Positions 8,489 through 29,045 of a stretch of 64,000 nucleotides of DNA are shown piece after piece. The stretch is taken from assembly GCF_050920415.1 (NCBI RefSeq), contig NZ_CP169309.1, one strand, 5' to 3'. Each line of letters opens with the position of its first letter. Position 1 is the first letter of the stretch. A program made the translations under genes and the position numbers. Source of the stretch: Escherichia coli (lineage in GTDB: Bacteria; Pseudomonadota; Gammaproteobacteria; Enterobacterales; Enterobacteriaceae). The notes beneath the pieces were generated by a model that saw only the letters and a program-made list of their open reading frames with translations, had not been told where the DNA came from and made no database searches.

Positions 8489-9933
8489 TGCAGGAAATCT
8501 ATCGTTTTATCGACGATGCGATTGAAGCCGATCGCCAACGTTATACCGATATTGCTGATCAAATCTGGGATCATCCAGAAACACGTTTTGAAGAGTTCTG
8601 GTCAGCGGAACATCTGGCTTCGGCGCTGGAATCTGCAGGCTTCACCGTTACCCGCAACGTAGGCAATATCCCAAATGCCTTTATTGCTTCGTTTGGTCAA
8701 GGCAAACCGGTTATCGCCCTGCTGGGGGAATATGACGCCCTGGCAGGTTTAAGTCAGCAAGCAGGGTGCGCGCAACCTACATCCGCGACGCCCGGTGAAA
8801 ATGGTCACGGTTGCGGACACAATTTGCTCGGAACCGCCGCCTTTGCCGCAGCAATAGCCGTCAAGAAATGGCTGGAACAATATGGGCAAGGCGGCACGGT
8901 GCGCTTTTATGGTTGTCCTGGCGAAGAAGGCGGCTCGGGTAAAACGTTCATGGTCCGCGAGGGGGTATTTGATGATGTGGATGCGGCACTCACCTGGCAC
9001 CCGGAAGCCTTTGCCGGTATGTTCAATACCCGCACGCTGGCAAACATTCAGGCATCATGGCGCTTTAAAGGGATCGCAGCACATGCTGCAAATTCCCCTC
9101 ATTTGGGACGCAGCGCCCTTGATGCCGTAACGTTGATGACCACTGGCACCAACTTCCTCAACGAACATATTATTGAAAAAGCGCGCGTACACTATGCCAT
9201 CACAGAGAGCGGCGGGATCTCGCCCAACGTGGTCCAGGCGCAGGCAGAAGTGCTTTATCTTATCCGCGCCCCCGAAATGACCGACGTGCAGCATATTTAT
9301 GATCGGGTAGCCAAAATCGCCGAAGGTGCGGCATTGATGACCGAAACCACGGTTGAATGCCGCTTCGACAAAGCCTGTTCCAGTTATCTCCCTAATCGCA
9401 CCTTAGAAAAGGCCATGTACCAGGCTCTGTCCCATTTTGGAACCCCTGAATGGAAATCCGAAGAACTGGCTTTTGCGAAACAAATTCAGGCTACGCTCAC
9501 CCCCAACGATCGGCAAAACAGTCTGAATAATATCGCCGCAACCGGTGGAGAAAACGGCAAGGCTTTTGCACTACGTCATCGTGAAACGGTACTGGCGAAT
9601 GAAGTCGCTCCATATGCCGCCACCGATAACGTGCTTGCGGCATCAACTGATGTCGGCGACGTCAGTTGGAAACTGCCTGTTGCCCAGTGTTTAAGCCCCT
9701 GTTTCGCCGTCGGTACACCGCTACATACGTGGCAACTGGTTAGCCAGGGGCGAACGTCTATTGCTCATAAAGGAATGCTGCTGGCGGCGAAAACTATAGC
9801 AGCAACCACACTTAATCTCTTCATTGATTCAGGGCTATTGCAAGAATGCCAACAAGAGCATCAGCAAGTTACGGACACGCAACCGTATCACTGCCCTATC
9901 CCGAAAAACGTGACACCGTCACCTTTAAAATAA
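8488..9933 (+). CDS. abgB: p-aminobenzoyl-glutamate hydrolase subunit B (M20 peptidase)
   Basis: 481 aa; ATGA overlap with abgA stop. Confidence 0.92.
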   Translation: MQEIYRFIDDAIEADRQRYTDIADQIWDHPETRFEEFWSAEHLASALESAGFTVTRNVGNIPNAFIASFGQGKPVIALLGEYDALAGLSQQAGCAQPTSATPGENGHGCGHNLLGTAAFAAAIAVKKWLEQYGQGGTVRFYGCPGEEGGSGKTFMVREGVFDDVDAALTWHPEAFAGMFNTRTLANIQASWRFKGIAAHAANSPHLGRSALDAVTLMTTGTNFLNEHIIEKARVHYAITESGGISPNVVQAQAEVLYLIRAPEMTDVQHIYDRVAKIAEGAALMTETTVECRFDKACSSYLPNRTLEKAMYQALSHFGTPEWKSEELAFAKQIQATLTPNDRQNSLNNIAATGGENGKAFALRHRETVLANEVAPYAATDNVLAASTDVGDVSWKLPVAQCLSPCFAVGTPLHTWQLVSQGRTSIAHKGMLLAAKTIAATTLNLFIDSGLLQECQQEHQQVTDTQPYHCPIPKNVTPSPLK

Positions 9934-9969
9934 CAACAACAACGCAAACACAACAAACGAGGAATGCCC

Positions 9970-11496
9970 ATGAGTATGTCATCCATACCGTCGTCCTCCC
10001 AATCCGGGAAGCTCTATGGCTGGGTCGAAAGAATTGGTAACAAGGTTCCCCATCCTTTTTTGCTCTTTATCTATTTGATTATCGTACTCATGGTGACGAC
10101 GGCAATTTTGTCGGCCTTTGGCGTCAGTGCGAAAAACCCGACCGATGGTACGCCAGTGGTCGTGAAAAACCTGCTCAGTGTGGAAGGATTACACTGGTTT
10201 TTACCCAATGTGATTAAAAACTTTAGCGGTTTTGCCCCACTAGGCGCGATCCTGGCGCTGGTTTTAGGTGCCGGTCTGGCGGAGCGCGTCGGCTTACTGC
10301 CAGCGTTGATGGTTAAAATGGCATCGCATGTGAATGCTCGCTACGCCAGTTATATGGTGCTGTTTATTGCTTTTTTCAGCCACATTTCTTCCGATGCGGC
10401 GTTAGTGATCATGCCACCGATGGGGGCGCTGATTTTTCTGGCGGTGGGCAGGCATCCAGTTGCAGGTTTACTGGCCGCCATTGCAGGCGTCGGTTGCGGC
10501 TTTACAGCTAATTTACTGATTGTCACAACCGACGTGTTGCTGTCGGGGATCAGCACGGAGGCTGCGGCTGCGTTCAATCCGCAAATGCACGTCAGTGTAA
10601 TTGATAACTGGTATTTTATGGCCAGCTCCGTAGTCGTACTGACGGTTGTTGGCGGCCTGATAACCGACAAAATCATTGAGCCACGGTTAGGTCAATGGCA
10701 GGGAAACAGCGATGAGAAACTGCAGACATTGACCGAAAGTCAGCGTTTTGGTTTACGCATAGCAGGTGTCGTATCGCTACTTTTTATTGCTGCGATTGCG
10801 CTGATGGTGATCCCGGTAAACGGTATATTGCGCGATCCGATCAACCACACCGTGATGCCATCCCCCTTTATTAAAGGTATCGTGCCACTGATCATTCTCT
10901 TTTTCTTTGTGGTTTCGCTGGCTTATGGCATCGCTACCCGCACAATTCGACGTCAGGCGGATTTACCGCATTTAATGATTGAACCGATGAAAGAGATGGC
11001 GGGATTTATCGTGATGGTTTTTCCCCTCGCCCAGTTTGTCGCCATGTTTAACTGGAGCAACATGGGGAAATTCATCGCTGTGGGGTTGACCGATATACTC
11101 GAAAGTTCAGGGCTTAGCGGCATCCCGGCGTTTGTCGGTCTGGCGTTGCTTTCCTCTTTCTTATGCATGTTTATCGCCAGCGGTTCCGCAATCTGGTCGA
11201 TTCTGGCCCCCATTTTCGTACCGATGTTTATGCTACTTGGCTTTCACCCGGCATTTGCGCAAATCCTCTTTCGTATTGCCGACTCATCCGTATTGCCTTT
11301 AGCGCCGGTATCTCCTTTTGTTCCACTGTTTCTTGGATTCCTGCAACGCTACAAACCAGACGCGAAACTGGGTACTTACTATTCGTTAGTTTTGCCCTAT
11401 CCACTTATCTTTTTGGTGGTATGGCTGCTGATGTTGCTGGCGTGGTATCTTGTCGGTCTGCCGATAGGTCCGGGGATTTACCCTCGTTTGTCTTAA
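9970..11496 (+). CDS. abgT: p-aminobenzoyl-glutamate transporter AbgT
   Basis: Track ORF 9964..11496; start at MSMSSIPSS gives 508 aa; polytopic membrane protein. Confidence 0.92.
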
Positions 11497-11506
11497 GAGA
11501 GAACGG

Positions 11507-12022
11507 ATGCTGAGATTACTTGAAGAAAAAATTGCCACGCCACTAGGTCCACTGTGGGTGATTTGCGATGAGCAATTTCGCCTGCGGGCGGTTGAATGGG
11601 AAGAGTACAGCGAACGCATGGTGCAGTTGCTGGACATCCATTACCGCAAAGAAGGCTATGAACGCATTTCTGCCACCAACCCAGGTGGTTTAAGCGACAA
11701 GCTTCGTGAATATTTTGCCGGTAATCTTAGCATTATTGATACGCTTCCCACTGCCACGGGGGGGACGCCATTTCAGCGCGAAGTCTGGAAAACATTACGC
11801 ACAATCCCCTGCGGGCAGGTAATGCATTACGGCCAACTGGCTGAACAATTGGGCCGCCCCGGCGCGGCGCGTGCCGTAGGTGCGGCAAATGGATCGAATC
11901 CCATCAGCATTGTTGTGCCTTGTCATCGGGTCATTGGCAGAAACGGTACCATGACCGGATATGCAGGCGGAGTTCAGCGAAAAGAGTGGTTATTACGCCA
12001 CGAAGGTTATCTTTTGCTGTAA
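11507..12022 (+). CDS. ogt: O6-alkylguanine-DNA methyltransferase Ogt
   Basis: 171 aa; PCHRV active-site motif. Confidence 0.95.
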
Positions 12023-12216
12023 ACATTAAACAATTTGTGCCAGCTTGTTCACACTTTTATGTAAAGATACCCTTAACAACTTAAGGGTTTTCAAATAGAT
12101 AGACATATATTTACATCTAATATCGGAATTCTCTGCTGTTAAGGTTTGCTTAGACTTACTTGCTCCCTAAAAAGATGTTAAAATTGACAAATATCAATTA
12201 CGGCTTGAGCAGACCT

Positions 12217-12969
12217 ATGATCCCGGAAAAGCGAATTATACGGCGCATTCAGTCTGGCGGTTGTGCTATCCATTGCCAGGATTGCAGCATCAGCCAGCTT
12301 TGCATCCCGTTCACACTCAACGAACATGAGCTTGATCAGCTTGATAATATCATTGAGCGAAAGAAGCCTATTCAGAAAGGCCAGACGCTGTTTAAGGCTG
12401 GTGATGAACTTAAATCGCTTTATGCCATCCGCTCCGGTACGATTAAAAGTTATACCATTACTGAGCAAGGCGACGAGCAAATCACTGGTTTCCATTTAGC
12501 TGGTGACCTGGTGGGATTTGATGCAATCGGCAGCGGTCATCACCCGAGCTTCGCGCAGGCGCTGGAAACCTCGATGGTATGTGAAATTCCGTTCGAAACG
12601 CTGGACGATTTGTCCGGTAAAATGCCGAATCTGCGTCAGCAGATGATGCGTCTGATGAGCGGTGAAATCAAAGGCGATCAGGACATGATCCTGCTGTTGT
12701 CGAAGAAAAATGCCGAGGAACGTCTGGCTGCATTCATCTACAACCTGTCCCGTCGTTTTGCCCAACGCGGCTTCTCCCCTCGTGAATTCCGCCTGACGAT
12801 GACTCGTGGCGATATCGGTAACTATCTGGGCCTGACGGTAGAAACCATCAGCCGTCTGCTGGGTCGCTTCCAGAAAAGCGGCATGCTGGCAGTCAAAGGT
12901 AAATACATCACCATCGAAAATAACGATGCGCTGGCCCAGCTTGCTGGTCACACGCGTAACGTTGCCTGA
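12217..12969 (+). CDS. fnr: Anaerobic global regulator FNR
   Basis: Track ORF 12160..12969; start at [23 protein letters not shown] gives 250 aa; N-terminal Cys cluster and CRP-family HTH. Confidence 0.97.
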
Positions 12970-13120
12970 TTTTTCCGCATCACTCACTATCCTTCTGTCA
13001 TATCATTAAATTTTTCTGATTTATTGATCTGGCAGAAGGTTCATCACTGTTTCATTCACCAGATATGGGTTAATCTTTTAATTACAAACTGCGTTGACAG
13101 TTGTTGTAAGGAGACCCTGT

Positions 13121-14071
13121 ATGGCTATGTATCACAACATGCTCGTTGTTATCGATCCTAACCAGGACGACCAACCAGCATTGCGGCGAGCTGTTTATTT
13201 ACATCAACGGATTGGTGGCAAAATTAAAGCCTTTTTGCCGATCTATGACTTCTCATACGAAATGACCACCCTGCTCTCCCCGGACGAACGTACCGCTATG
13301 CGTCAGGGCGTCATCAGCCAACGAACAGCCTGGATCCACGAGCAGGCAAAATATTATCTCAATGCTGGCGTTCCCATTGAAATTAAAGTGGTCTGGCATA
13401 ACCGTCCATTCGAAGCCATCATTCAGGAAGTGATCAGCGGCGGGCACGATTTGGTGCTAAAAATGGCGCACCAACATGACCGTCTGGAAGCGGTGATTTT
13501 TACGCCAACGGACTGGCATCTGTTACGCAAATGCCCAAGCCCGGTGTGGATGGTGAAAGACCAGCCGTGGCCGGAAGGGGGTAAGGCGCTGGTGGCGGTG
13601 AATCTCGCCAGTGAAGAGCCGTACCATAATGCGCTCAATGAAAAACTGGTCAAAGAGACGATCGAACTGGCAGAACAAGTCAACCATACCGAAGTTCATC
13701 TGGTTGGCGCTTATCCGGTAACGCCAATTAATATCGCGATTGAACTGCCGGAATTTGACCCGAGCGTTTATAACGATGCCATTCGTGGGCAACATTTGCT
13801 GGCAATGAAAGCTCTGCGGCAGAAATTCGGCATTAATGAAAACATGACACACGTAGAAAAAGGTCTGCCCGAAGAGGTGATTCCTGATTTGGCGGAGCAC
13901 TTACAGGCGGGGATTGTGGTTCTGGGCACGGTCGGACGCACCGGTATTTCAGCAGCATTCCTTGGCAACACGGCGGAACAGGTGATTGATCATCTTCGCT
14001 GCGACCTGCTGGTCATTAAACCTGACCAGTATCAGACACCCGTTGAACTGGATGACGAAGAAGACGATTAA
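13121..14071 (+). CDS. uspE: Universal stress protein E (tandem Usp domains)
   Basis: Track ORF 13094..14071; start at [10 protein letters not shown] gives 316 aa. Confidence 0.93.
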
Positions 14072-14092
14072 CGACTCTTCAATAACTGACAA

Positions 14093-14118
14093 GGCCCGAG
14101 TTATCGGGCCTATTTTTT
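14093..14118 (+). terminator. Rho-independent terminator after uspE
   Basis: GGCCCGAgttaTCGGGCC hairpin followed by TATTTTTT. Confidence 0.75.
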
Positions 14119-14120
14119 AC

Positions 14121-14378
14121 TTACTGCTCTTCGCCGCCAAGGAAATAAATACCCAACGGGATTGCCAGCAACACAGTAAAGACCAGGCTATAAACAAAAA
14201 TCATCGATGACTGAATCACATACATTGATGTCGTCCACTCAGACAGCGGAATATTGTACTGTTCTATAACGCCGCCGATGGTCGCGCGAGTCACAACCGA
14301 CGCCGCAATAATGAAAACCGCCAACAAACCAAAGAGAAATTTCTTCCCTTTCGCTGACTTCAGTTTCGCCATAATCAT
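14121..14378 (-). CDS. ynaJ: Small inner-membrane protein YnaJ
   Basis: 85 aa, two TM segments; recognised sequence and synteny. Confidence 0.88.
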   Translation of the reverse strand: MIMAKLKSAKGKKFLFGLLAVFIIAASVVTRATIGGVIEQYNIPLSEWTTSMYVIQSSMIFVYSLVFTVLLAIPLGIYFLGGEEQ

Positions 14379-14621
14379 GATGTAATCCTTGTGCAGACAA
14401 ATTTCTTGTTACCTAAACGTAACAATACCATGACATTTCACCGTTGTCTGCTCTGAAAACCTCACCTCTTAGCTGGATTTACAATCAACGCATTGATTAG
14501 TTAGCTAATGTTGCTACTTCCTTCCCTGACTATTGATGATCTGAATGAATTGTCGCGGTAAAATAGCCCCGCCAGGGGTTTCCGGCATGACGACAATTAT
14601 CTGGAGGAGCCTGATAAAACA

Positions 14622-15653
14622 ATGATCGCTGAACTGTTTACAAATAATGCGCTTAATCTGGTCATTATTTTCGGTAGCTGCGCAGCATTGATTCTGATGA
14701 GCTTTTGGTTTCGCCGCGGAAATCGTAAAAGAAAAGGATTTTTATTCCATGCGGTGCAATTTTTCATCTACACCATAATTATCAGTGCTGTTGGTAGCAT
14801 CATTAATTATGTTATAGAAAACTACAAACTCCAATTTATCACTCCAGGCGTTATCGATTTTATCTGTACGTCCCTGATTGCTGTTATTCTGACGATTAAG
14901 TTATTTCTGCTGATTAATCAGTTTGAAAAACAGCAGATTAAAAAAGGTCGTGATATCACCAGTGCGCGGATTATGTCGCGTATCATCAAAATCACCATTA
15001 TTGTGGTACTTGTTTTGCTTTATGGCGAACATTTCGGCATGAGCCTTTCTGGCTTGCTGACCTTTGGTGGTATTGGTGGTCTGGCTGTTGGTATGGCCGG
15101 TAAAGATATTCTGAGTAACTTCTTTTCCGGGATTATGCTCTATTTCGACCGTCCTTTCAGTATTGGCGACTGGATCCGTTCACCGGACAGAAATATCGAA
15201 GGTACAGTAGCGGAAATTGGCTGGCGAATTACCAAAATTACGACCTTTGATAATCGTCCGTTATACGTCCCGAACTCGCTGTTTTCGTCTATCAGCGTAG
15301 AAAACCCGGGGCGAATGACCAACCGACGTATTACCACGACAATCGGTTTACGTTATGAGGATGCGGCAAAAGTGGGAGCCATTGTCGAAGCCGTACGTGA
15401 GATGCTTAAAAATCACCCGGCCATCGACCAGCGACAAACCTTACTGGTTTATTTCAACCAGTTTGCTGACTCGTCATTGAATATTATGGTTTATTGCTTT
15501 ACCAAAACCACAGTATGGGCTGAATGGCTTGCCGCCCAGCAGGATGTTTATTTGAAGATTATCGATATTGTACAGTCACACGGCGCGGATTTCGCGTTCC
15601 CAAGCCAGACGCTGTATATGGATAACATTACACCACCAGACCAGGGTCGTTAA
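14622..15653 (+). CDS. ynaI: MscS-family mechanosensitive channel YnaI
   Basis: 343 aa; N-terminal TM helices plus MscS beta domain; synteny. Confidence 0.92.
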
Positions 15654-15664
15654 TTCAGACATCA

Positions 15665-15692
15665 CTGGCGTTACCCACAAGGGTAACGCCAG
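15665..15692. terminator. Bidirectional hairpin between convergent ynaI and mppA
   Basis: GGCGTTACCCacaaGGGTAACGCC perfect 10-bp stem. Confidence 0.7.
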
Positions 15693-15698
15693 TTCACA

Positions 15699-17309
15699 TC
15701 AATGTTTCACAATATACATAGTCCGGCTATACGCCACATCTTCCGGGTTATTAATGGGATAACCTTTCAGCCACGGCTTGATTAATCGTCCATTGGTATA
15801 TTGATAAATTGGTGCAATCGGTGCTTGCTCCATGAGGATTTTTTCTGCCGCATTGTAATCGGCATTACGCGCTTTAACGGTATTTTCCGTCGATGCCTGG
15901 GCCAAAACTTTGTCGTAGGCCGGGTTGTTAAAGCGTGAAATGTTGCCTGAATGCGTTGACGTTAATAATGTCAGGAAGGTGGAGGGTTCATTATAATCCC
16001 CCACCCACGAGGCGCGGATAACATCAAAATTACCTGTATTACGACTATCGATATAGGTTTTCCATTCCTGATTTTGCAGTTTGACATCTACACCAAGGTT
16101 CTTTTTCCACATCGATGCCACAGCAATCGCAATTTTTTGATGGTTTTCTGAAGTATTATACAAAAGCGTCAGCTTCAGCGGTTTTTGCGGACCATAACCG
16201 GCTGCGCTCAACAAAGTTTTTGCCTGCGCATTCAGTTCTTCCTGACTCATTTGTTCAAACGGCGAAGGCTCCGGCGTGAATCCGGCAGTAACATCTGGCG
16301 TAAAATGCCACGCTGGTTTTTCGCCCGTCCCCAACACTTTTTCGGTCATCAGGCGGCGATCTATCGTCATACTTAATGCCAGACGAACGCGCTGATCTGC
16401 CGTCGGCCCTTTTTGCGTGTTAAACGCATAATAATAGGTTCCGAGCTGCGGCGGTGTATAAACCTGCCCCGGAATATCCTTCAACAGCTTCTGATACATA
16501 TTTTTGGGGAAGGATTCGGTGATATCAATATCCCCCGCGAGATAACGCTTAGTGGCTGCGGATTCCTGATTAATTGGCAGGAAGGTCACTTTTTGCAACA
16601 CCGTTTTGGCGTTATCCCAATAATGGGTATTTGGCACCACGACCAGTTTTTCATTGACTACACGCTCTTTAAGAACATAAGCGCCATTGCCGACCAGATT
16701 TCCGGGTTTCGTCCACTCTTTCCCGCTTTCTACGTTAGCTTTTTGCACCGGGAAGAAGGCAAAATTGGCTGTTAAATTCACAAACCACGGCAACGGTTTA
16801 TCAAGCTGGATTTTCAAAGTACGGGCATCAACCGCGGTGACGCCTAGCTGATCAGGCGTAGCTTTACCATCAATAATCGCCTGTGCGTTGTTGATTCCCG
16901 CCAGCGCGGCAAACCAGGCAAACGGCGACAACGTTTTTGGGTCAACCAGACGTTGCCAGCTGTAGACAAAATCCTGTGCCGTTACCGGTGTGCCATCCGC
17001 CCATTTTGCGTTATCGCGCAGGGTGAAAGTCCAGATACGGTTGTCATTACTTTTCCACTGAGTCGCAACGCCGGGGACAATCTCCCCTTTCTCGTTCTGA
17101 TTCACCAGTCCTTCAAAAAGATCGCGAATGACCTGAATCTCTGGCAGACCCACGGCTTTAGCGGGATCCAGCGACGCAGGCTCATCTTTAATATGGCGCA
17201 CCAGCTCCTGCTTCTCTGCCAGTACTGTGCCGCTCGGAACTTCTGCAGCATACGAAAGAGACATTATGCAAAGTGGCAAAAACGATATATAAATCATGAT
17301 TTTATTCAT
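15699..17309 (-). CDS. mppA: Periplasmic murein tripeptide-binding protein MppA with a non-K-12 (phage-derived) signal-peptide N-terminus
   Basis: Track ORF 15699..17345; start chosen at MNKIMIYISFLPLCIMSLSYA|AEVPSG (536 aa). From SLSYAAEVPSG onward it matches my recollection of MppA; the first ~16 codons are AT-rich and differ. Confidence 0.85.
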   Translation of the reverse strand: MNKIMIYISFLPLCIMSLSYAAEVPSGTVLAEKQELVRHIKDEPASLDPAKAVGLPEIQVIRDLFEGLVNQNEKGEIVPGVATQWKSNDNRIWTFTLRDNAKWADGTPVTAQDFVYSWQRLVDPKTLSPFAWFAALAGINNAQAIIDGKATPDQLGVTAVDARTLKIQLDKPLPWFVNLTANFAFFPVQKANVESGKEWTKPGNLVGNGAYVLKERVVNEKLVVVPNTHYWDNAKTVLQKVTFLPINQESAATKRYLAGDIDITESFPKNMYQKLLKDIPGQVYTPPQLGTYYYAFNTQKGPTADQRVRLALSMTIDRRLMTEKVLGTGEKPAWHFTPDVTAGFTPEPSPFEQMSQEELNAQAKTLLSAAGYGPQKPLKLTLLYNTSENHQKIAIAVASMWKKNLGVDVKLQNQEWKTYIDSRNTGNFDVIRASWVGDYNEPSTFLTLLTSTHSGNISRFNNPAYDKVLAQASTENTVKARNADYNAAEKILMEQAPIAPIYQYTNGRLIKPWLKGYPINNPEDVAYSRTMYIVKH

Positions 17310-17351
17310 ATATTTTTTAACCTTAAAATAATATGGTACACACAATGGTAC

Positions 17352-17381
17352 ACAAAAAGAAACGAGGCGTTAGCCTCGTTT
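17352..17381 (-). terminator. Rho-independent terminator after the tail fibre gene
   Basis: Minus strand AAACGAGGCtaacGCCTCGTTT followed by CTTTTTGTG. Confidence 0.75.
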
Positions 17382-17409
17382 CGCGGCGATGTTCTTCGCA
17401 CATCACCTC

Positions 17410-19782
17410 TTATTCTTCGCTTCCGGTCAACTGCTTAACAAGCGCAACCAGTTCGCTAACCTGATTTTCAAGATTGGTGATACGTTCATCCATGACAGTA
17501 ATGTTAGCACGTAAGCTGGCGTTTTCTTCTTCCAGTGCTGTAGCTTTCAACATTAAGGATTGTGTAACGTGCATTGTATCGAGCAATAAAGGCGTAGTAT
17601 CAAGCTCTTTCACCTCTATTTCTTTGTTGTTATTATCATAATGTGTTCTTGTTTTTACATATAACGGATCTATTAGTTCGGCTGATTGTGAAATAATGCC
17701 ACGCCGCACTCTTTCTTTTTCATCACCATTGAATACGAATGTTACGAAATCAAGGTTTTCTAAATTGCTCCACGCTTTATCTACGGTAGCGTGCTGCACA
17801 TTATGCTTAAATCTAATATCAGATATTGCATTTTTAGTAACCGTTGAGGTTTCTGTTACGGAATAATTATCCCATTTGGTAAAGTAAATGTTTGAATCAA
17901 ACGGGGCAATTTCAAGTCTTACTCCGTATTTGTTATCACTATCACCAACGCAGTTTAATGAAGTCCTAGCAAAACTAGTGGTATTGTGATGAATTAAACC
18001 GAGACTATACCAAGTCGCATACCCCGCTGAGGATGCTTGCCCTGCACTAAAATTGGAATTAAACGACCAGTTTTCACCTATATTAGTGTAAGGTACAACG
18101 AATGTTGCGCCGTGCGTTGGGATCTCACCCCAACTTAAAAGTTTTTGCGTTGTAGCCCTAAATGATGCTGATTCAAAAAGCCCGCTATCATTTACCGTAA
18201 TTCTCCCCTTGTTCCCTGATGTTTTATTTTCAACTTCAATAACTGCATAGTGGGATTGATCGATATACGCATCACCCCACATCGACACTTCGCATTCTGA
18301 GGCGTCACCGATCTTGTATACGGATTTTACAACACCTGTAGTTGATTTTGTTCCGGTTGATAGCCTTGTTTTGTCGGCGTTAATTACGCTCCAGGATGTA
18401 TTTGCAGCGGTAAAGCCACCAGATGCACGGATCACCCATACACCAACAAAGTTTCGTGTAAGAATTTCATCTGTTGATGCTCCATAAATCGGGCTACACC
18501 GTGACGCATCAAAAGTACATGTATTATAACGGCCTTCCAAAGCGGTTGTACCGCTAGGAATTGCATCACCTACACCGTCAGGAAATACACTGTTATCGGA
18601 GGAAAATGCACCATAAGATGTGCCAATGGCTTGCGCGTAACTCCCACCGGAATAAGTGGTAAAATAACCAGTAATATTTGGCGCGGCTGATTCAAATAGT
18701 TGTCCGTTTGCACTACTAACGCCACCATCACCTCGACCATAAAGCGCTCTGATCGATCCTTCTTGTATACCGTTTTTATCGGGAACGCGGAAAGTTGTTT
18801 CTCCGTCACCCGTGGAATATTTACCGCGTTGGAATTTATCAGCCAGCCATTCAGAATCATCTATAGCGCCCACCATTTGAGCGTAAGCCCACAATTCAGG
18901 CCAATCTGCACGGTTAAGTAATTGCCCGTCCGATGTAACCTCATAAGGCTGAATATAAGCGCGGCTATCGCGTAAGTGGAAATCCCCTACGCCGTAATTC
19001 ATAACACCGTTCATTGTTGGTCCGACTGTACCACTATTGATATAGTTCATTACCCAACGCATTGTTACAGCGTCGTAATCACTTACCGGATCGCCTGCTA
19101 ATGGCGTTGAACCTATTGGGCGAACGTTCAACCAGGCCGCCGCTCGGTCGGCAAGATCGGAAAGGTTATTTTGTATTCTTAGAAATGAATCCGGGTTTAT
19201 GTCGTTTTTGTACCCTTCCGCTATGTTTTTATATTCTTCGGCGTTAGCGGCGCTTTCTGCTGCGTTTACTGCCGCCCCTGTTGCGGTAACAGCCCCTTCT
19301 TCTGCTGTTTGTGCTGCTGCTTCTGCTGCTGCTTTAGATGATTCGGCGTCTGTTTTGTATTGCTGAGTTGTCGCTTTATCTGCGCTTACTTGCGCTGAGT
19401 CCGTGTGAACTTGGTTAACTAGTGCTATCAATCCATCAAGATCAAATTCCTGAAAAAATTCAACTGCGTTTGCAATTTCGGTTTCCTTGCCCTGATAGTA
19501 ACGCAGAGTTTCAGCAACATCTTGCGCTAAACCATCTACAGAAATCGAGTCTGAAAGCAGAATACTGAATTTTGTCCCGGCAGATATTGCAGGGTCGGCC
19601 GCAGGAGTTACTGATAATTCAGTTCCGCTCTTAATTTCGGTGATGGTAAATATCTGCACAGGATCGCTAACTGCAATCAGCGTGCACCCTTCCCGGATGA
19701 GCGAAAGCGGCGCGGTGAAGCTTGTCCCCAAGCCTGTAACAGTGTTACCACTAATAGCTATTGTTCCTGTTGTATAAATCAT
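17410..19782 (-). CDS. Tail fibre with C-terminal intramolecular-chaperone (peptidase S74-like) domain
   Basis: 790 aa; N-terminus typical of siphovirus side/L-shaped fibres; Ala-rich coiled segment; SDIRFKHNV...GIISQSAELIDPLYV resembles the S74 autoproteolytic chaperone; terminal coiled coil. Confidence 0.75.
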   Translation of the reverse strand: MIYTTGTIAISGNTVTGLGTSFTAPLSLIREGCTLIAVSDPVQIFTITEIKSGTELSVTPAADPAISAGTKFSILLSDSISVDGLAQDVAETLRYYQGKETEIANAVEFFQEFDLDGLIALVNQVHTDSAQVSADKATTQQYKTDAESSKAAAEAAAQTAEEGAVTATGAAVNAAESAANAEEYKNIAEGYKNDINPDSFLRIQNNLSDLADRAAAWLNVRPIGSTPLAGDPVSDYDAVTMRWVMNYINSGTVGPTMNGVMNYGVGDFHLRDSRAYIQPYEVTSDGQLLNRADWPELWAYAQMVGAIDDSEWLADKFQRGKYSTGDGETTFRVPDKNGIQEGSIRALYGRGDGGVSSANGQLFESAAPNITGYFTTYSGGSYAQAIGTSYGAFSSDNSVFPDGVGDAIPSGTTALEGRYNTCTFDASRCSPIYGASTDEILTRNFVGVWVIRASGGFTAANTSWSVINADKTRLSTGTKSTTGVVKSVYKIGDASECEVSMWGDAYIDQSHYAVIEVENKTSGNKGRITVNDSGLFESASFRATTQKLLSWGEIPTHGATFVVPYTNIGENWSFNSNFSAGQASSAGYATWYSLGLIHHNTTSFARTSLNCVGDSDNKYGVRLEIAPFDSNIYFTKWDNYSVTETSTVTKNAISDIRFKHNVQHATVDKAWSNLENLDFVTFVFNGDEKERVRRGIISQSAELIDPLYVKTRTHYDNNNKEIEVKELDTTPLLLDTMHVTQSLMLKATALEEENASLRANITVMDERITNLENQVSELVALVKQLTGSEE

Positions 19783-19941
19783 CTCAACAACTCCATAATG
19801 TTAACTTATGTGTCAATTCTACCATTTTGCGATCTGTGTTACATTTCTGTCTTATACAAAATGTATTTGTTGATTTACATCAATGTTGTGAAAATGCGGT
19901 TTGTGGATACTACAACCAACGAAACAACGGAGGGTAAGACA

Positions 19942-20181
19942 ATGAAAGGCTTAAAAAATATCGCTATCGCTGCAATGGTTGCTGGTCTGGTTGGTTGTGC
20001 TGATATGCCGAAACGTGAATGCACGGCAATTTATCAAACTGGCGGTAATGAGTATGCGGTTGCAGTCTTCGGTGTCGCGGATGTTGGTGGTCACAAAATG
20101 GCTAAGGCTGGGTATCCATTTAATTTTCAATGGGTGAGCGTTGACCACTTCAAGAAAACGGATTGCCCGGAATTGAATTAA
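19942..20181 (+). CDS. 79-aa lipoprotein, opposite strand to the tail genes (Cor/Llp-like superinfection-exclusion candidate)
   Basis: MKGLKNIAIAAMVAGLVGC lipobox; GGAGGG SD; lies inside track ORF 19798..20181. Confidence 0.65.
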   Translation: MKGLKNIAIAAMVAGLVGCADMPKRECTAIYQTGGNEYAVAVFGVADVGGHKMAKAGYPFNFQWVSVDHFKKTDCPELN

Positions 20182-20771
20182 TCATAGGCGTCGGTTTTAA
20201 TGGCGGTGATAGCGTTCCCGTGGTTAATATAGCCAGTTGGTGCATATACGCTACCCGCCTGGATGCCGTAAATTCTAGTTGTGCTTCCGTTGTAATAAGC
20301 CGCCGCATAAATGGATGCACTACCCTGTCCAACGAGCGCCCCTAACAATTGGGGGCAAATAGCATAAGAACCGGATAACGTTTGGTCTATATAAATTCCG
20401 CCGCTTGATCCTGCCGTCCCAACGGTTACAAGGTCTGTTAATATTCTTGATTCATTAGTTAGCACTAGTTCCCCGGAAGCGTTCCAAATAGCCATTCCCC
20501 ACTTCGGCAGCGATGGCGGGAAAATAGTGAAAATATACGCATACCCCGAACCAGCCCCGATTAGTAAAGTTGATGGGCTATTTCTATAAGCTAATACAGC
20601 GGCGGCGGTAGTGCTTTTTACAAATACCATCACGGGCTTCCCGGATGGCACGGCGACGGTTTGATTCGATGATGTTAATGTCACCCGTTCATATAAGCAA
20701 AGCGGCGTTGCTTCCGGTGTAACGAAAATATTCCCGTTACTTAATCTCAAATAAGCTCCGAAGGTTGCCAT
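20178..20771 (-). CDS. Hypothetical tail-associated protein (197 aa)
   Basis: Track ORF; ATGA-coupled to the upstream gene; shares the MATFG N-terminus with 20771..21082. Confidence 0.6.
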   Translation of the reverse strand: MATFGAYLRLSNGNIFVTPEATPLCLYERVTLTSSNQTVAVPSGKPVMVFVKSTTAAAVLAYRNSPSTLLIGAGSGYAYIFTIFPPSLPKWGMAIWNASGELVLTNESRILTDLVTVGTAGSSGGIYIDQTLSGSYAICPQLLGALVGQGSASIYAAAYYNGSTTRIYGIQAGSVYAPTGYINHGNAITAIKTDAYD

Positions 20772-21082
20772 TAAGCCACCTCCGCAAATATAACAATTTC
20801 ACACTGTGACGCGGGCCATATATTAGCGCCTACCGTATCCCCTGCCGAGGAAATGGAAACAGTACCACCCGAAATAGTGATCTTTCTGCGCGTCGTTGAC
20901 GTTGTGCCATAATCAAGCGTCATCCCATAAGATAATTTGCATCCGGTCGGCACTGTAAAGGTATATGTGCCGGATACCTGCCCGGATGATAAGGAAATAT
21001 AACCAACCACAACGGAAGGTTTAATTCCATAGTTATTAGCATTGCCGCTGGCGTCCCAGGTCGCTACGCCGAAAGTAGCCAT
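20771..21082 (-). CDS. Hypothetical tail-associated protein (103 aa)
   Basis: Track ORF; GGAGGTG SD; follows the J-like gene. Confidence 0.6.
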   Translation of the reverse strand: MATFGVATWDASGNANNYGIKPSVVVGYISLSSGQVSGTYTFTVPTGCKLSYGMTLDYGTTSTTRRKITISGGTVSISSAGDTVGANIWPASQCEIVIFAEVA

Positions 21083-21108
21083 AATTACACCTCCTTAATA
21101 AAAAACTG

Positions 21109-21125
21109 AGGCCGAACAAGTCGGC
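21109..21125 (-). terminator. Intrinsic terminator hairpin after the J-like gene
   Basis: Minus strand GGCCGActtgtTCGGCC followed by TCAGTTTTTT. Confidence 0.6.
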
Positions 21126-21134
21126 CCCTTAATT

Positions 21135-24100
21135 CTACCATGATCCGGTAATTCGCCCAATCTGGACGCGCAAAACCCCGTTACCGTCTTTTACCGAAAT
21201 AGTGGTATTAGTTAATTTCATCGCGCCCTCACCACTCACCGCGCCGTAGTTTTCGAATGTCCCGCCTTTATCCAGTTTCCATCCGGTACTGCCGGAAACA
21301 TAGTTATTTGACTGGATGTAAGAACCTATTTTCGCGTTGGTGATTGAGGCGTCTTTTATAAATGCTTCGCGAACATACATAGCGCCGTTTTCAACATAAA
21401 ATGGTGTCGTATATGTGCCGTTGGCGGCTGTCATTAATACGAAGCGGTCAACAAGAAAAATACATTGTGATTGCGTATTTGCGCCATCACCAGTTACCCC
21501 AAGCGATATTCCTGACGCGTATTTCATACCGTTGTTATCAGTAGCGATCTTGAGACTCCAAGTTGCCGACATATCACCATTAATATTGGTAATTGCTGTT
21601 TTGTTTTCCTCAATAAGCACTGATTGCCCATTAATTGATGCGGTTACTTCGCTAATTTGCTGCGCGGTTGCTTTTTCAAGCGTAACCATTGCTTGTTCAA
21701 GGTTTGTGACCTTCCCTTGAATATCATCACTTATTTTTGCTTCAAGCTCTGATAATGCTTTTGCTGTTGCCTCTTTTTCCGTTGCGACAACTTCATCTAT
21801 ACGCGTGATCTCTGCTTTTGATTGTTTCAACTGAGCGGAAAGTGTGCGTCTTGATGTTGTTTGAGCTACGGAATTATTAAGAAGCGCAATGGAAACGTTT
21901 TGCAAGCGGGCGCGAGTTTGTGTTAGTTCGCTATCCTGTTCCGAAAGCTCGACACCTATTTCGTCAATACGACTTTCATGAACCCCTAACCCCTCTTCGT
22001 TATTCTGGACGCGATTAATTAGATCTGATGTGGTATCCTTCAGATCGGTAACATCCCCTTTAAGTGTGCTCGTGTCACTAATCAACCCTTGAAATTGCTC
22101 GCTTTCCATGACTTCTTTCGTCACGAAATCTGTAATTTCGTCGAAGTCCTCCGTAGGCTTCCCGGATGCCTCAATAAAATCTGACACACCGAACGCGTTG
22201 CGGGTGCGAATGTACACATAATACATGTGGCCTGTGCTCATGCCGCCGAACGTCCATTGATAACCACGTCCGGTATACTGCGCTGACGTGGTTATGGTTG
22301 CCGGATCCGTAATCCTGTTTTCTCCGGCGTAATAAAATTCATATGCCGTATCAGTGGTGAGTGTTGTTTTGCTTATCGGGTAGACAGTAGCCTGAAATAC
22401 ACCAGGCACCCAATTTACACCGACAGGCGCGGATGGCGCTCCAATCACCAGATCGACGATGCTTTCTGCACCCTTCATGCCAGTGTCATTTCTGCCGCGA
22501 ACACCTAACGTGTATGAACCAGCATCAATGCCATAAAAATCATAACTGTATTTCGTGGTTTCATAGCTTTTAACCACCGCACCATCTGCATTGTATATGC
22601 GGATCTCGAATGTCATGCGATGAGTGGTAGTCTGTGTCTCCCACGTTGCGCGGCATTGAACTGTTTCCGATCCAATGTTTACTACCTTCAGATTTTCGAT
22701 GTTCGGCACACGGAAGTGATTAAGCGTGTCGCTGTTGATTTCGAAGATTGCGCCTTCATCGACTACGGCTTGTTTGTTAGGGTCGTGCTGCGCGGCTTCG
22801 ATAGTGTATACGCTGTTATTTTGTGTTTCTGCTACGCTGGTGATCCTACACAAAACTGGTTTTGCTGCGTTAGTTGATACAGCAAAAACAGTGCCATTTC
22901 GAATCCATGTTGGGGCCGCAGCAAGGGTGATATTGTTTCCGTTAACTCCGGTGATCTGGTGTTTTTTAAATTTGCCATCGCTATCAAGAAGGCTTATTGT
23001 GTCGCCAGCGGTCACATATTCAGAATCAACCTTATCTACAGTGATCACACGTCCATTGTTAGAGACAATACGACCGCCTAAGCGAGCGCCAGCACGGTTA
23101 TTGTCGAGTATCTCGATGATATCACCTGGCGTAAAGTGAATCGCGTCACGGGCCATTTTAAACGTGAATTTTGAAGGCTCGCGCTTCGCTGTTTCTATCA
23201 GCCATTTACCCGCCCGGTGCGCTTGCCCGCGTGATGTACACCCGAAAGCCTCCAGCGTGGTTTCGTTGTAGCCGTCACGGGCGATTAGTTCATCATCTGC
23301 GACATACTCTTTTGATTGTTCCCAGCCGTTTTCCGGATCAGTCCATGACACAATTACCGCGTTGTAGCATTCTGATCGCGCGATACTTGAACGGGTAAAT
23401 GCACCATCCACGACGTTTGCGTTAGTGATGGTTGCGATTGGGTCTTGTGGTGCATCAATCATTATAGTAAGGCGCTGACCATCCCATAACGCTATACCAC
23501 GGAACATCCCGGCGATGTTGTCCAGTAGGTCGCGGGCGCTCATTTGCTCTGTGATGTACGCGTTTAGCGTGACGCGCGGCTCTAAGCCACCATAGCCATC
23601 ATCAACCAACTGATCGCAGTATTGAGAGAGCGTATACAAAGCACCATCATCAACATCGATATAACCAGCCTGTCGAGCAAGGCCAAAACGCTCGTTTTTA
23701 ACCAAGTAGCGGAATATCCACGCCGGGTTATTTGTGTATGCCTTTTTAAGTCCGCCAAGCCATAAACCGGAATAATTTCGTTTTTCCGGGTCGTAGTTAT
23801 CCGGTACATCGACAATCAGCCCACGCAGATGATAAGTGCGTGTAGGTGTATCGGAGTACTGGTCATGGTCAATTACCGCGCCAGCTACAGCAGTGTGAGG
23901 ATAAGACAAGTTATCGTCGATGATTTCGCTATAACTGTTCCAGCGGGTATCGTTCTGTAATAGGTCGCTTACACTATCAGCCGTCACGCGGCGCACGCGA
24001 ATATCAAATGGCTTTTCATCCGGCGCATCAATGATATGAGACTCCAGATATTCACCGCTAATCTTACCCGGACCGATTTGTACGGCCTTAACCGCCGACC

Positions 24101-24554
24101 AGGTGGAAGACGAGGACGGTTTAACATCGATTGCCATAATGACAGACGTTTCTTTCTGGTTTGATTGGTTATCGCTTTCCACCAGTGAATCCACGCCAAT
24201 ATTTAGCCGGACGCGCGTCACGTTCGGATCTGATACCGTCCTGACCAGTGGCGTATCATGCTTTACCTGTGCGTTAACCATCACCGTTGATTCAATGGCG
24301 TTAAAGCCGTTGATCGGTGACTGGTCGGCAGTACCCGGACGCCAGGCGACACTAACGCCTGGAATGCTGGTATTACCTACCGCATCCGTAACAGGAGTGT
24401 CATTAAGCATTACGCAGTTTAACGGCGCGGCAGTATTGACAGGCCCATAAATCGGCCCTTCGCTCAATATATCAAGCACGCGATAAAACTGCTTATGGAA
24501 CAAGTTATCGTTTATTAATGTTGGTGTTTTTGCTTTACCACCGCCGCCGCCCAT
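21135..24554 (-). CDS. Tail tip host-specificity protein (lambda J family)
   Basis: 1139 aa (lambda J is 1132); follows I/K/L/M homologues in lambda order. Confidence 0.88.
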   Translation of the reverse strand: MGGGGGKAKTPTLINDNLFHKQFYRVLDILSEGPIYGPVNTAAPLNCVMLNDTPVTDAVGNTSIPGVSVAWRPGTADQSPINGFNAIESTVMVNAQVKHDTPLVRTVSDPNVTRVRLNIGVDSLVESDNQSNQKETSVIMAIDVKPSSSSTWSAVKAVQIGPGKISGEYLESHIIDAPDEKPFDIRVRRVTADSVSDLLQNDTRWNSYSEIIDDNLSYPHTAVAGAVIDHDQYSDTPTRTYHLRGLIVDVPDNYDPEKRNYSGLWLGGLKKAYTNNPAWIFRYLVKNERFGLARQAGYIDVDDGALYTLSQYCDQLVDDGYGGLEPRVTLNAYITEQMSARDLLDNIAGMFRGIALWDGQRLTIMIDAPQDPIATITNANVVDGAFTRSSIARSECYNAVIVSWTDPENGWEQSKEYVADDELIARDGYNETTLEAFGCTSRGQAHRAGKWLIETAKREPSKFTFKMARDAIHFTPGDIIEILDNNRAGARLGGRIVSNNGRVITVDKVDSEYVTAGDTISLLDSDGKFKKHQITGVNGNNITLAAAPTWIRNGTVFAVSTNAAKPVLCRITSVAETQNNSVYTIEAAQHDPNKQAVVDEGAIFEINSDTLNHFRVPNIENLKVVNIGSETVQCRATWETQTTTHRMTFEIRIYNADGAVVKSYETTKYSYDFYGIDAGSYTLGVRGRNDTGMKGAESIVDLVIGAPSAPVGVNWVPGVFQATVYPISKTTLTTDTAYEFYYAGENRITDPATITTSAQYTGRGYQWTFGGMSTGHMYYVYIRTRNAFGVSDFIEASGKPTEDFDEITDFVTKEVMESEQFQGLISDTSTLKGDVTDLKDTTSDLINRVQNNEEGLGVHESRIDEIGVELSEQDSELTQTRARLQNVSIALLNNSVAQTTSRRTLSAQLKQSKAEITRIDEVVATEKEATAKALSELEAKISDDIQGKVTNLEQAMVTLEKATAQQISEVTASINGQSVLIEENKTAITNINGDMSATWSLKIATDNNGMKYASGISLGVTGDGANTQSQCIFLVDRFVLMTAANGTYTTPFYVENGAMYVREAFIKDASITNAKIGSYIQSNNYVSGSTGWKLDKGGTFENYGAVSGEGAMKLTNTTISVKDGNGVLRVQIGRITGSW

Positions 24555-24566
24555 AATAACCCCCTA

Positions 24567-25097
24567 TTAACTTACAACGTCCAGCGCGTCTTTATTGTTG
24601 GTTGTATCAATACCCAGGGATCCAACATTCGAACCTATTTTCATTTCACCCAATAAAATTGGAACGGGACGGCCCTGGCCTACTCTGTTTTCTACACTGG
24701 TGTAACTGTTATTTGTGATGCTATTATCCTGCGCACTTTCCGCTGATGTTTTTACTTTCATGTTTCGGGCCATGAAAATAGAAAACGCGATGCTTGCAAC
24801 GGAAAGGCCGATTAACAGCCAGCCAACCACACCGATCCCTGCGATACCACCTTCTACCACTGGCGCAACAATAATTGTTGTTCCGTCAGGGTATTCACTA
24901 TTAACGGCAGCAGGTGCGGTTTTTTCGTCGTAATCTTTCCCGGCAATGCGTAAGCGTAATGGCGTACTTAAAAACGCTCGCTTAAATTCCTGATTCTGTG
25001 CGGTCAATAAGCGAAGCCCTTGCGCGGGCGTATTAACGTTTAAACACACTTTGCTGTAATATCTTCGAAGATTGCCCGTAAATCTAAATTTGAGCAT
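24567..25097 (-). CDS. Tail assembly protein (lambda I family)
   Basis: 176 aa; central hydrophobic segment and position between K and J as in lambda. Confidence 0.75.
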   Translation of the reverse strand: MLKFRFTGNLRRYYSKVCLNVNTPAQGLRLLTAQNQEFKRAFLSTPLRLRIAGKDYDEKTAPAAVNSEYPDGTTIIVAPVVEGGIAGIGVVGWLLIGLSVASIAFSIFMARNMKVKTSAESAQDNSITNNSYTSVENRVGQGRPVPILLGEMKIGSNVGSLGIDTTNNKDALDVVS

Positions 25098-25771
25098 TTG
25101 TCAGATCTCCATATTGAATGCGTTTGTCGAACATACGCTGGCCGCATTTGCTCGCGGCGGCTTAATAGTCCGGCATGGTCATGATGCAAAACCGTGTTAT
25201 CACCCAGGTAAAGCATTGCGTGACATGGATCCGCGCCTTTAAACGGCTGCCGGATGATCACGTCACCAGGCTGGATGTTTTGCGTGTCAATCTGAAAAAA
25301 ACCGTTTAGCGGCAAGTTTTTTAAATACAGGTTTTCACCGCGTAGCCACCACCCATCAAGGCGATCGAAGTCCGGCAGGTCTACGCCGCAAAGGTGATAG
25401 GCATCCCGAAAAAGCGTGTAACAATCAGTTGTCCCGTGTACAAATTTACGTCCTAGCAAGTGCGCCACCGGACGGAACTTCCTGATCTTGCCGCCTGAAT
25501 ATAAAAACCACGGCAGCCCGGAAATAACATGCTGTTGTCGATCCCGTGCCGACAATACCGGAATATCATCAACGTGGGAGTGAAAAACGGCGGTTATAAC
25601 GCCCAATTCGTCAGCTTTGATGTAATCGTCCGGCAAAATTTTAAAGCTGTTATGCGGCGTCTCAGACACGTTCACGCACGGGTAAAAATATTCATTGTCT
25701 ATCACCAGTCCGCAAACTTCCTCAAACGGATGTGCGGCGGCATAACGAAACATTTTGTCTTTCAGCGTCAT
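25040..25771 (-). CDS. Tail tip assembly protein (lambda K family; MPN plus NlpC/P60 domains)
   Basis: Track ORF 25040..25867; start set at MTLKDKMF (ATGA overlap with L stop); HSH..D MPN-like and TDCYTL...H NlpC/P60-like motifs. Confidence 0.8.
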   Translation of the reverse strand: MTLKDKMFRYAAAHPFEEVCGLVIDNEYFYPCVNVSETPHNSFKILPDDYIKADELGVITAVFHSHVDDIPVLSARDRQQHVISGLPWFLYSGGKIRKFRPVAHLLGRKFVHGTTDCYTLFRDAYHLCGVDLPDFDRLDGWWLRGENLYLKNLPLNGFFQIDTQNIQPGDVIIRQPFKGADPCHAMLYLGDNTVLHHDHAGLLSRREQMRPAYVRQTHSIWRSDKCSNLDLRAIFEDITAKCV

Positions 25772-25773
25772 AA

Positions 25774-26511
25774 TCAACCTACCTTGCTTGATCCTGGAAA
25801 ACATGAGATCGGCAATGGATTTGGACGCGGGAAACGCAAGCGACAACCGCTTAGGCGGTGGCTGCACCTGTCTAATGTTGGATCGTTTGTCGGCTCGTCT
25901 TTGTCTGTAGCAACTGGCCCGCCAGAGTACGCACAGCCATCACCTCTATACTGCCACTGGCAAACGTCAGCAAGAATGGTGCGGCCTGGGATCACCGCCT
26001 TATCTGCATCAATTGGCGTTGACAACTCATATTGCACCTGATCCGCTGTTTCTTCACTCATGGCCTCTATAACGTAAAAGGACACCGCCTCAATAGATGG
26101 ATCAGCGTCAGGATTGCCATTTGGGAAGTTAACAGCGTCAAGGTATTTCACTTCCACCTGGCGGCGCGTAACCTTCATGCCTCGAAGGTCGTTATAGTCG
26201 GTATTCATCCCGGTAATGAGTCCGCCAATGTTTGCTACAGCCATTTGAGGGCGAGAATAAACTCCTTCGTTTTTCATTTCGAAGCCAGTAGCCTCGATTG
26301 GATAGCTGTTATAAGCCACGCCCTTCCAGATGACCGGACCGTAATAACCATTCGCGCCGGAATGGAAGCGGACAACCTCGCCACCAAGGGGAGTAAGGTC
26401 CAATTCGAACAAGTCAATGATTGCGCCGACTCCCGCATCGACGGAATCAATAATCATCTCTGTAGGTATATTGCGCATTTTATCACCTTGTTGTTTTGTG
26501 ATCTGCATCAC
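25774..26511 (-). CDS. Minor tail protein (lambda L family)
   Basis: 245 aa; KYLDAVNFPNGNPDADP and CxWxYRGDGCxYSG regions closely resemble lambda gpL. Confidence 0.88.
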   Translation of the reverse strand: MMQITKQQGDKMRNIPTEMIIDSVDAGVGAIIDLFELDLTPLGGEVVRFHSGANGYYGPVIWKGVAYNSYPIEATGFEMKNEGVYSRPQMAVANIGGLITGMNTDYNDLRGMKVTRRQVEVKYLDAVNFPNGNPDADPSIEAVSFYVIEAMSEETADQVQYELSTPIDADKAVIPGRTILADVCQWQYRGDGCAYSGGPVATDKDEPTNDPTLDRCSHRLSGCRLRFPRPNPLPISCFPGSSKVG

Positions 26512-26617
26512 ACCGTGAATGCCAAAATGGATTGATAGCGTGATTTACAATATGTATATTTTACTCAAACGAACGGTAGTAAACAAAATGGCACAGTTTG
26601 GAACAGGATAGGACACT

Positions 26618-26776
26618 ATGAGATCCGCAAAATACGCAGAAAAAGTTTTCGTTGAAGTGAAAGGCGACATGAAAAAATTTATGGATGTTCTTATCAAAGA
26701 GATGGGAAAACCGTTCCATATAGCCGAACGTCAGTATTACGCTTGCAAGGCTAATAGCTACAACAGATACGCATGA
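26618..26776 (+). CDS. Moron small ORF (52 aa)
   Basis: My translation: MRSAKYAEKVFVEVKGDMKKFMDVLIKEMGKPFHIAERQYYACKANSYNRYA; AGGATAGG SD; ordinary composition, unlike the junk-like antisense track ORFs. Confidence 0.45.
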   Translation: MRSAKYAEKVFVEVKGDMKKFMDVLIKEMGKPFHIAERQYYACKANSYNRYA

Positions 26777-26798
26777 CAATAAACACAAAGGTAACACT

Positions 26799-27152: not shown

Positions 27153-27161
27153 GGCGGCAAT

Positions 27162-27410: not shown

Positions 27411-27420
27411 GTGACAGATT

Positions 27421-29044: not shown

Positions 29045-29045
29045 T

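Follow-up and report, generated by a model that had tools for sequence, protein, structure and literature searches.

How does a gene for an exported protein stay open when a prophage lies in the codons of its signal peptide? This question is raised by mppA, the gene of the murein-tripeptide binding protein, in a stretch of 64,000 nucleotides from an Escherichia coli genome (contig NZ_CP169309.1; the window, in the following, is this whole stretch). Here, the first codons of mppA run directly into the tail-fibre end of a prophage, and an earlier note, made from the sequence alone, had proposed that a phage integrated into the 5' end of the gene and that the phage end rebuilt a functional signal peptide. 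Our analysis leaves us highly confident that the locus carries a site-specific phage integration in the signal-peptide codons of mppA, with a built-in restoration of the reading frame. The insertion site itself is already published, the substitute signal peptide is not. The features of the locus are collected in Table 1.

A prophage junction in the signal-peptide codons of mppA

The reading frame of mppA is intact, as the earlier note had stated, and its product carries the Pfam domain SBP_bac_5 (E=1.8e-94). The N-terminus reads MNKIMIYISFLPLCIMSLSYA|AEVPSG in the window and MKHSVSVTCCALLVSSISLSYA|AEVPSG in K-12 (NC_000913), the latter exactly as given in the earlier note. In a pairwise alignment, mppA below the breakpoint was identical to K-12 apart from scattered substitutions; identity began exactly at position 17261 (TCTCTTTCGTATGCT.. 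onward) and was gone from 17262 upward, which places the breakpoint (17261/17262) at mppA codons 17-18. Upstream of it, no similarity to K-12 mppA was left except next to the core, and 16 codons stand for 17. These 16 divergent codons had been described as AT-rich, and indeed their GC content is 25%, compared to 48% in the rest of mppA, where the lowest value in any 48-nt window is at least 29%. Because 16 phage codons replace 17 native ones, the signal peptide has 21 instead of 22 amino acids.

To place this junction among other strains, a 331-bp query spanning it was compared with 5,426 complete E. coli genomes, a set that does not include the source strain of the window. The query matched in 5,414 of the 5,426 genomes, and in all but two the match ended at window position 17261-17264. 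The two exceptions, which carry the junction, were GF66.2 (95.5% identical) and O157:H7 LSU61 (93.9%). In both, the tail-fibre gene adjoins mppA, and RefSeq labels the chimeric gene as full-length mppA. The N-terminus MNKIMIY was found only in prophage-carrying genomes (2 of the 5,426 complete ones, plus the window) and in no prophage-free mppA allele of this set.

The prophages of GF66.2 and LSU61 are collinear, each with a length of about 54 kb, and give access to the other end of the element. In GF66.2, the order at the far end is pgrR, IS1, the native mppA upstream region, a 66-bp pseudo-CDS (coding sequence), phage DNA and a site-specific integrase. The pseudo-CDS corresponds to the displaced native 22-codon start of mppA, followed by the core and the phage arm. 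The second junction of LSU61 is 100% identical to that of GF66.2 and was present in no other genome. In both strains, a second copy of the 8-bp core lies at the integrase-side prophage end, so that the duplicated core and the mppA 5' remnant for which the earlier note had looked to the far end are both there, together with a tyrosine integrase. The latter contains, in GF66.2, the domains PF00589 Phage_integrase (4e-17) and PF13356 Arm-DNA-bind_3 (2e-19), a combination that fits integration of the lambda-Int type. Within the 64-kb window, neither a second core nor the native mppA start was found; the prophage runs off its end. Because the window stops about 6.3 kb short, the second junction and the integrase of this genome are placed by collinearity with GF66.2, according to which the part beyond the window would comprise replication genes, the integrase and the second junction.

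An uninterrupted attP was identified in the IMG/VR contig UViG_3300045988_060283 (54.5 kb), with phage genes on both sides. Its order is tail fibre, terminator, decamers, ATGAATAAAATAATGATTTATATATCGTTTTTGCCACTTTGCATAATG, TCTCTTTC, TAATGCTACATACCGCGCACAAGCGTAA, further repeats and integrase. The 8-bp core TCTCTTTC is common to the K-12 attB, this attP and both GF66.2 junctions, with mismatches on both flanks. As attB and both junctions share only those bases, the crossover is placed inside the core. In native mppA, the core encodes Ser-Leu-Ser (codons 18-20), and the continuation of attP past the core encodes SLSNA, which resembles the host SLSYA. Taken together, the breakpoint, the junction found only with the prophage, the reciprocal junction and the intact attP support the proposed phage integration at the 5' end of this gene.

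With regard to the identity of the element, alignments to mEpimmI phages covered 65-78% of window positions 17310-42000 at 83-88% identity and 72-85% of positions 42001-64000 at 87-90% identity. The prophage is also collinear with the one in GF66.2 (86% covered, 83-94% identity), and its tail-fibre end, terminator and repeats match mEp010, mEp013, mEp044, mEp554, mEp021 and mEp515. The integrases of the mEpimmI group have been sorted into four types, whose N-terminal DNA-binding part is conserved across types (PMC11893012, 2025). Type I uses the 5' region of ydaM (dgcM), type II the 3' region of abgT and type III, of which LSU61 is the sole member, the 'initiation region of mppA'; the site of type IV is unmapped (PMC11893012). 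Frame restoration, a substitute signal peptide, the codon context of the core and promoter exchange are not mentioned in PMC11893012. The integrases of the mEp phages (types I and II) are only 47-49% identical to that of GF66.2; the type III gene was seen in GF66.2, LSU61 and the IMG/VR phage and was absent among species-representative genomes. The LSU61 prophage belongs to the same phage group and uses the same att locus as the window, and the window junction is 94-96% identical to those of the two known type III prophages, GF66.2 and LSU61. As the mppA site is already part of PMC11893012, the window adds what is, judged by these alignments, a further, diverged type III member of the mEpimmI group.

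The phage-borne leader and the expression of mppA

The n-region of the chimeric leader, MNK, contains one Lys and no acidic residue, and its h-region IMIYISFLPLCIM is uncharged, with a maximal 10-residue hydropathy of 2.27 compared to 2.55 in the native leader. The c-region and cleavage site, SLSYA|AEV, are the host's own, with unchanged residues at -3 and -1. Because the host supplies this part, mature MppA remains the same. In a rule-based check, MNK / IMIYISFLPLCIM / SLSYA|A showed the layout of a Sec (signal peptidase I) substrate, and we infer that the chimeric leader would work as a Sec signal peptide. The expectation by chance was estimated from composition-matched shuffles of the 97-nt attP arm: an in-frame ATG leader of 15-35 amino acids appeared in 7.7% of the shuffles, an in-frame leader with signal-peptide shape in 0.22%. 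Layout and rarity both back the proposal that the phage end rebuilds an in-frame leader of this shape.

Four alleles of the leader were compared (window, GF66.2, LSU61 and IMG/VR). They vary at five sites, namely AAA/AAG, ATC/ATA/ATT, TCG/TTG, ATA/GTA and ATG/ATA. The first of these is synonymous, the three forms of the second all encode Ile, and the residue changes at the others are Ser to Leu, Ile to Val and Met to Ile, so that all of the differences are either synonymous or keep the hydrophobicity.

The fusion is built into the phage, as the attP arm already holds the ATG and 15 codons that are in frame with those of the core, and it is therefore formed at every integration. The three lysogens with the fusion carry prophages that are 5-15% divergent and lie in different host backgrounds; as they nevertheless share the fusion, it is a property of attP and not a post-integration repair.

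One possible source of the leader was the MppA or OppA of another species. A search for homologous leaders among MppA/OppA proteins, using a 75-aa query against a large protein database, returned only native-type leaders, MKHSVSV.., MKHPVSL.. and MNKKVHF.., and the idea of a captured leader was rejected, as none of those retrieved resembles MNKIMIY. A degenerate pattern of the leader DNA gave nothing in species-representative genomes or metagenome contigs and one match in viral contigs. The phage segment is also not a recognisable homologue of the displaced mppA segment. Without similarity to the native or the retrieved leaders, it looks like a functional analogue instead of a captured homologue.

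The DNA next to the leader has the features of an att arm. The decamer ATGGTACACA (TGTGTACCAT on the coding strand) lies at 17333..17342 and 17345..17354, exactly where the repeat had been noted before, and a search of the 64 kb that tolerated one mismatch gave no further copy; the 49 nt carrying both copies have a GC content of 22%. An att duplication was rejected as the reading of this repeat, because matching repeats occur on the integrase-side arm and in related phages. A 26-nt unit of two TGYGTACCA-type decamers is found once on the tail-side arm of attP, whose integrase-side arm has two such units, one of them degenerate, and the motif also flanks the differing cores of mEp010 and mEp021. 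The attP of these two phages and of the IMG/VR phage is bordered by the tail-fibre terminator on one side and by the integrase gene on the other, and each of its arms carries TGTGTACCA-type repeats; the window corresponds to the tail-side arm. Based on the repeats on both arms, the conserved N-terminal part of the integrases (PMC11893012) and the Arm-DNA-bind_3 domain, the decamers are most likely arm-type integrase-binding sites. A putative integration host factor (IHF) site within the leader codons, which is matched at the same position in the free IMG/VR attP, suggests that this DNA also serves as att arm. The tail-fibre terminator is present as described earlier, only its limits had to be corrected from 17352..17381 to a stem-loop at 17382..17359 followed by the T-run (-21.1 kcal/mol; 0 of 200 shuffles fold as well). 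It is kept in the mEp phages and annotated there as terminator.

In the lysogen, transcription of mppA, if there is any, must begin within phage DNA. To this extent, the proposed dependence of mppA on the phage border stands; the part of the claim that found no support is the phage promoter, for which no candidate scored better than chance. The sole sigma-70 candidate matches the consensus at 8 of 12 positions, and its score in a weight-matrix scan was equalled in 15-21% of the shuffles. Its position is kept in the four alleles, and it ends 18 nt before the ATG, which would result in a transcript leader of about 11 nt. The Shine-Dalgarno site TAAGG is likewise kept in all four alleles. In the reading that we favour, mppA would still be transcribed, from a weak phage-border promoter. 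Whether exported MppA is actually made in the lysogen we consider an evenly balanced question.

A mechanism for the fusion and its alternatives

The explanation that accounts best for the data as a whole, and which we regard as likely, is a type III integration of an mEpimmI phage in which a leader built into attP restores mppA. A temperate mEpimmI (mEp021-like) phage with a 'type III' tyrosine integrase would recombine its attP with an attB in the signal-peptide codons of mppA, with strand exchange within the 8-bp core. The attP arm between terminator and core, which provides the ATG and 15 in-frame codons, would thereby be fused to the rest of mppA, and the product would combine the phage n- and h-regions with the host c-region. 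At the same time, the native promoter, the 5' untranslated region and the first 17 codons would be shifted by about 54 kb to the integrase end. At this end of the lysogens' prophages, the native mppA promoter is joined to a fused 28-codon open reading frame (ORF; MKHSVSVTCCALLVSSISLSNATYRAQA and stop), and both are directed towards the integrase gene, which lies about 170 nt further on (GF66.2 34310..34560, minus strand, in L003 numbering; 8850..9030 in L007 numbering), and no terminator was predicted between them and the integrase gene. With this orientation and no predicted terminator in between, the host promoter could drive the integrase gene. An exchange of expression signals in both directions, with a phage Sec signal peptide and a weak promoter for mppA and a host promoter for the integrase, is a tentative idea about which we are rather doubtful. 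In this idea, the weak promoter, which overlaps the putative arm-type sites, may be occluded by the integrase. If it were true, integrase supply and excision would be tied to the host control of cell-wall peptide recycling, and the MppA levels would be set by the phage.

Several observations weigh against the favoured explanation. The h-region of the leader contains Pro and Ser. The leader DNA is no more conserved than the adjoining non-coding arm, and with a sample of four alleles the substitution pattern is statistically light. The anti-Shine-Dalgarno duplex of TAAGG has -3.9 kcal/mol compared to -6.3 for native mppA, and a strict sigma-70 consensus scan of the coding strand from the terminator to the ATG detected no promoter, the one candidate lying below its threshold. 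Because of this lack of a significant promoter and the weak Shine-Dalgarno site, mppA may be poorly expressed or silent. In addition, a sister integrase type truncates dgcM without any rebuilding, and the second junction of the window genome itself lies past the window end.

A first alternative is that the integration is real and the leader functionless, so that mppA is effectively silenced and the frame persists by recency and because an AT-rich arm happens to encode hydrophobic residues. The absence of a promoter above chance with a strong terminator directly upstream, the weak ribosome-binding site and the type I phages of the group, which merely truncate dgcM, would all fit such a silent gene. 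So would the IHF-like site in the leader DNA, as att function alone could explain the AT-richness. MppA is not known to be essential, which also counts in this direction. On the other hand, a signal-peptide-shaped in-frame leader arose in only 0.22% of the shuffles, and ATG, frame and hydrophobicity are kept in four alleles of phages that differ by 5-15%, with only conservative residue changes and one codon in three synonymous forms. We therefore consider a silenced mppA unlikely.

A second alternative starts from the free attP, in which the leader is part of a complete 27-codon ORF (MNKIMIYISFLPLCIMSLSNATYRAQA) with its own stop. About 150 nt separate this ORF from the integrase gene, which follows in the same orientation, and no terminator is predicted in between. 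The ORF could primarily be a phage element, either an upstream ORF or leader of the integrase gene or a small membrane peptide, with the mppA fusion as a by-product. Searches for relatives of the peptide gave neither a homologue nor a family, the 75-aa query having retrieved native-type MppA leaders only, and neither the match of its frame across the core to the mppA frame nor the mimicry of the host SLSYA by SLSNA would be explained, which makes this origin very improbable. Finally, the notion of an ordinary mppA allele, or of a recombination unrelated to the phage genes that would merely be adjacent, has only the intact reading frame on its side and a practically negligible probability, refuted as it is by 5,414 genomes that break at the same base, a variant found only with the prophage, the reciprocal junction and the intact attP.

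Restoration of mppA by a leader built into attP would mean that a gene is kept open not by a diverged copy but by an unrelated sequence that does the same job as start codon and export-signal core. The same 48 bp must also act as an att arm, a case of compact dual coding. With the integration, mppA is separated from its promoter as well as from pgrR, the regulator gene next to it, and the host promoter now faces the integrase gene; both murein-tripeptide uptake and prophage stability could thus change with lysogeny. Automated pipelines will label such chimeric genes as normal mppA.

Neighbouring features and comparison with known systems

Some further features of the locus and its relatives were recorded. 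Over its 17.5 kb, the host flank (1..17498) shares only 97.2% identity with GF66.2, and the source strain of the window may belong to a divergent lineage. Two insertion sequences distinguish the reference loci: IS1 lies between pgrR and the displaced mppA start in GF66.2 (34813..35510, L003 numbering), and IS5 lies between ynaI and ynaJ in K-12 (8045..9239, L001 numbering) and is absent from the window. Within the prophage, the last gene at the mppA end is annotated as tail fibre also in GF66.2, LSU61 and the mEp phages. A small gene located between it and the J gene is encoded opposite to the late genes (19942..20181, plus strand, in ORF 19798..20181). Its product MKGLKNIAIAAMVAGLVGC.. carries the lipobox LVGC and probably corresponds to the superinfection-exclusion lipoproteins of mEpimmI phages (PMC11893012, section 3.7).

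Table 1. Features of the mppA-prophage junction, with positions in the window and the sequences compared
Feature	Positions	Strand	Sequence	Basis
mppA, intact ORF, 536 aa	15699..17309	-		ORF list
Host-derived part of mppA, from the cleavage region to the stop, including the mature murein-tripeptide binding protein	15699..17253	-	..SYA|AEV	ORF; K-12 alignment; Pfam
Crossover core, 8 bp (Ser-Leu and first two bases of the next Ser)	17254..17261	-	TCTCTTTC	attB, attP and both junctions compared
Phage start codon and 15 codons, n- and h-regions of the putative chimeric signal peptide	17262..17309	-	MNKIMIYISFLPLCIM	K-12 alignment; 25% GC
Chimeric N-terminus, signal-peptide part onward			MNKIMIYISFLPLCIMSLSYAAEVPSG..	
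IHF-like site inside the leader codons, one mismatch to WATCAANNNNTTR	17292..17304	+	AATCATGATTTTA	Consensus match only
Short 5' untranslated stretch with weak Shine-Dalgarno site, 10 nt from the ATG	17310..17332	-	TAAGG (AAGG 17321..17324)	
Sole sigma-70 candidate, 16-nt spacer, overlapping the decamers	17328..17355	-	TTGTGT (17350..17355), TATTAT (17328..17333)	
Two direct decamers, 12 bp apart, probable arm-type integrase sites	17333..17354	-	TGTGTACCAT	Exact search
Intrinsic terminator of the tail-fibre (late) transcript: 10-bp stem, 4-nt loop, T-run	17354..17382	-		Fold
Tail-fibre gene, 790 aa, last gene at this prophage end	17410..19782	-		Pfam Peptidase_S74 chaperone domain
mEpimmI (mEp021-like) prophage, running off the window	17262..64000	-		Alignment to mEp010, mEp021, MagusPhagus; GF66.2 collinearity
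attB			..GCAGCATT TCTCTTTC GTATGCTGCAG..	K-12
mppA-side junction			..TTGCRTAATG TCTCTTTC GTATGCTGCAG..	
Integrase-side junction			..GCAGCATT TCTCTTTC TAATGCTACATACC..	GF66.2
Integrase-side sequence with core, as expected past position 64000			..TAGCATTAGAAAGAGA..	

Within the mEpimmI phages, rebuilding of a 5' end as a family trait was rejected based on the type I site in dgcM. At this site (MIN12 junction and predicted reciprocal junction; 1600..1680 in L011 numbering), no ATG is present and the frame is closed by a stop 7 codons before the core, so that dgcM is truly truncated in type I lysogens, in agreement with PMC11893012. In the window, the type I attB core (CTGTCTGGA) is present and unoccupied at 3991..3999 (dgcM codons 15-17). 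Near the 3' end of abgT, 11 bp at 11403..11413 (ACTTATCTTTT) match the mEp010 attP region in reverse complement and are a candidate for an unoccupied type II attB.

Beyond this group, the earlier note had regarded the locus as the 5'-end counterpart of phages that rebuild icd or tRNA genes. The rebuilding itself stood, its unusualness was weakened, since the mppA site is published (PMC11893012) and Rac in ttcA and Gifsy-1 in lepA are precedents. We thus present a refinement of a published integration site and not a new kind of system; a limited literature search on phage-supplied signal peptides at att sites returned nothing relevant.

One such precedent is Rac in E. coli K-12, which has its att site inside the 5' coding region of ttcA and, as in mppA, gives the gene its N-terminus and leaves it open. 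Its excision alters four N-terminal residues of TtcA (PMC4632033), a cytoplasmic enzyme, whereas in mppA 16 unrelated codons take the place of 17 that encode the functional n- and h-region of the native signal peptide. Gifsy-1 of Salmonella integrates within the first 123 bp of lepA, with no reported loss of function (PMC4632033, PMC13090387), and thus also within a coding sequence near its 5' end; this gene encodes a cytoplasmic GTPase without a signal peptide, in contrast to mppA with its rebuilt one. In e14 and phage 21, which integrate in icd, and in the phages of tRNA and tmRNA genes, attP carries a substitute for the displaced part of the target gene (PMC4632033), a principle shared by the mppA phage. 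These phages replace the 3' end, using a homologous copy that has diverged, and leave the host promoter in place. In contrast, the mppA phage replaces the 5' end by a non-homologous segment that appears to be functionally analogous, and the host promoter is lost. The general mechanism has precedents; the mppA case differs from them in that the working core of an export signal is replaced, and by a non-homologous segment.

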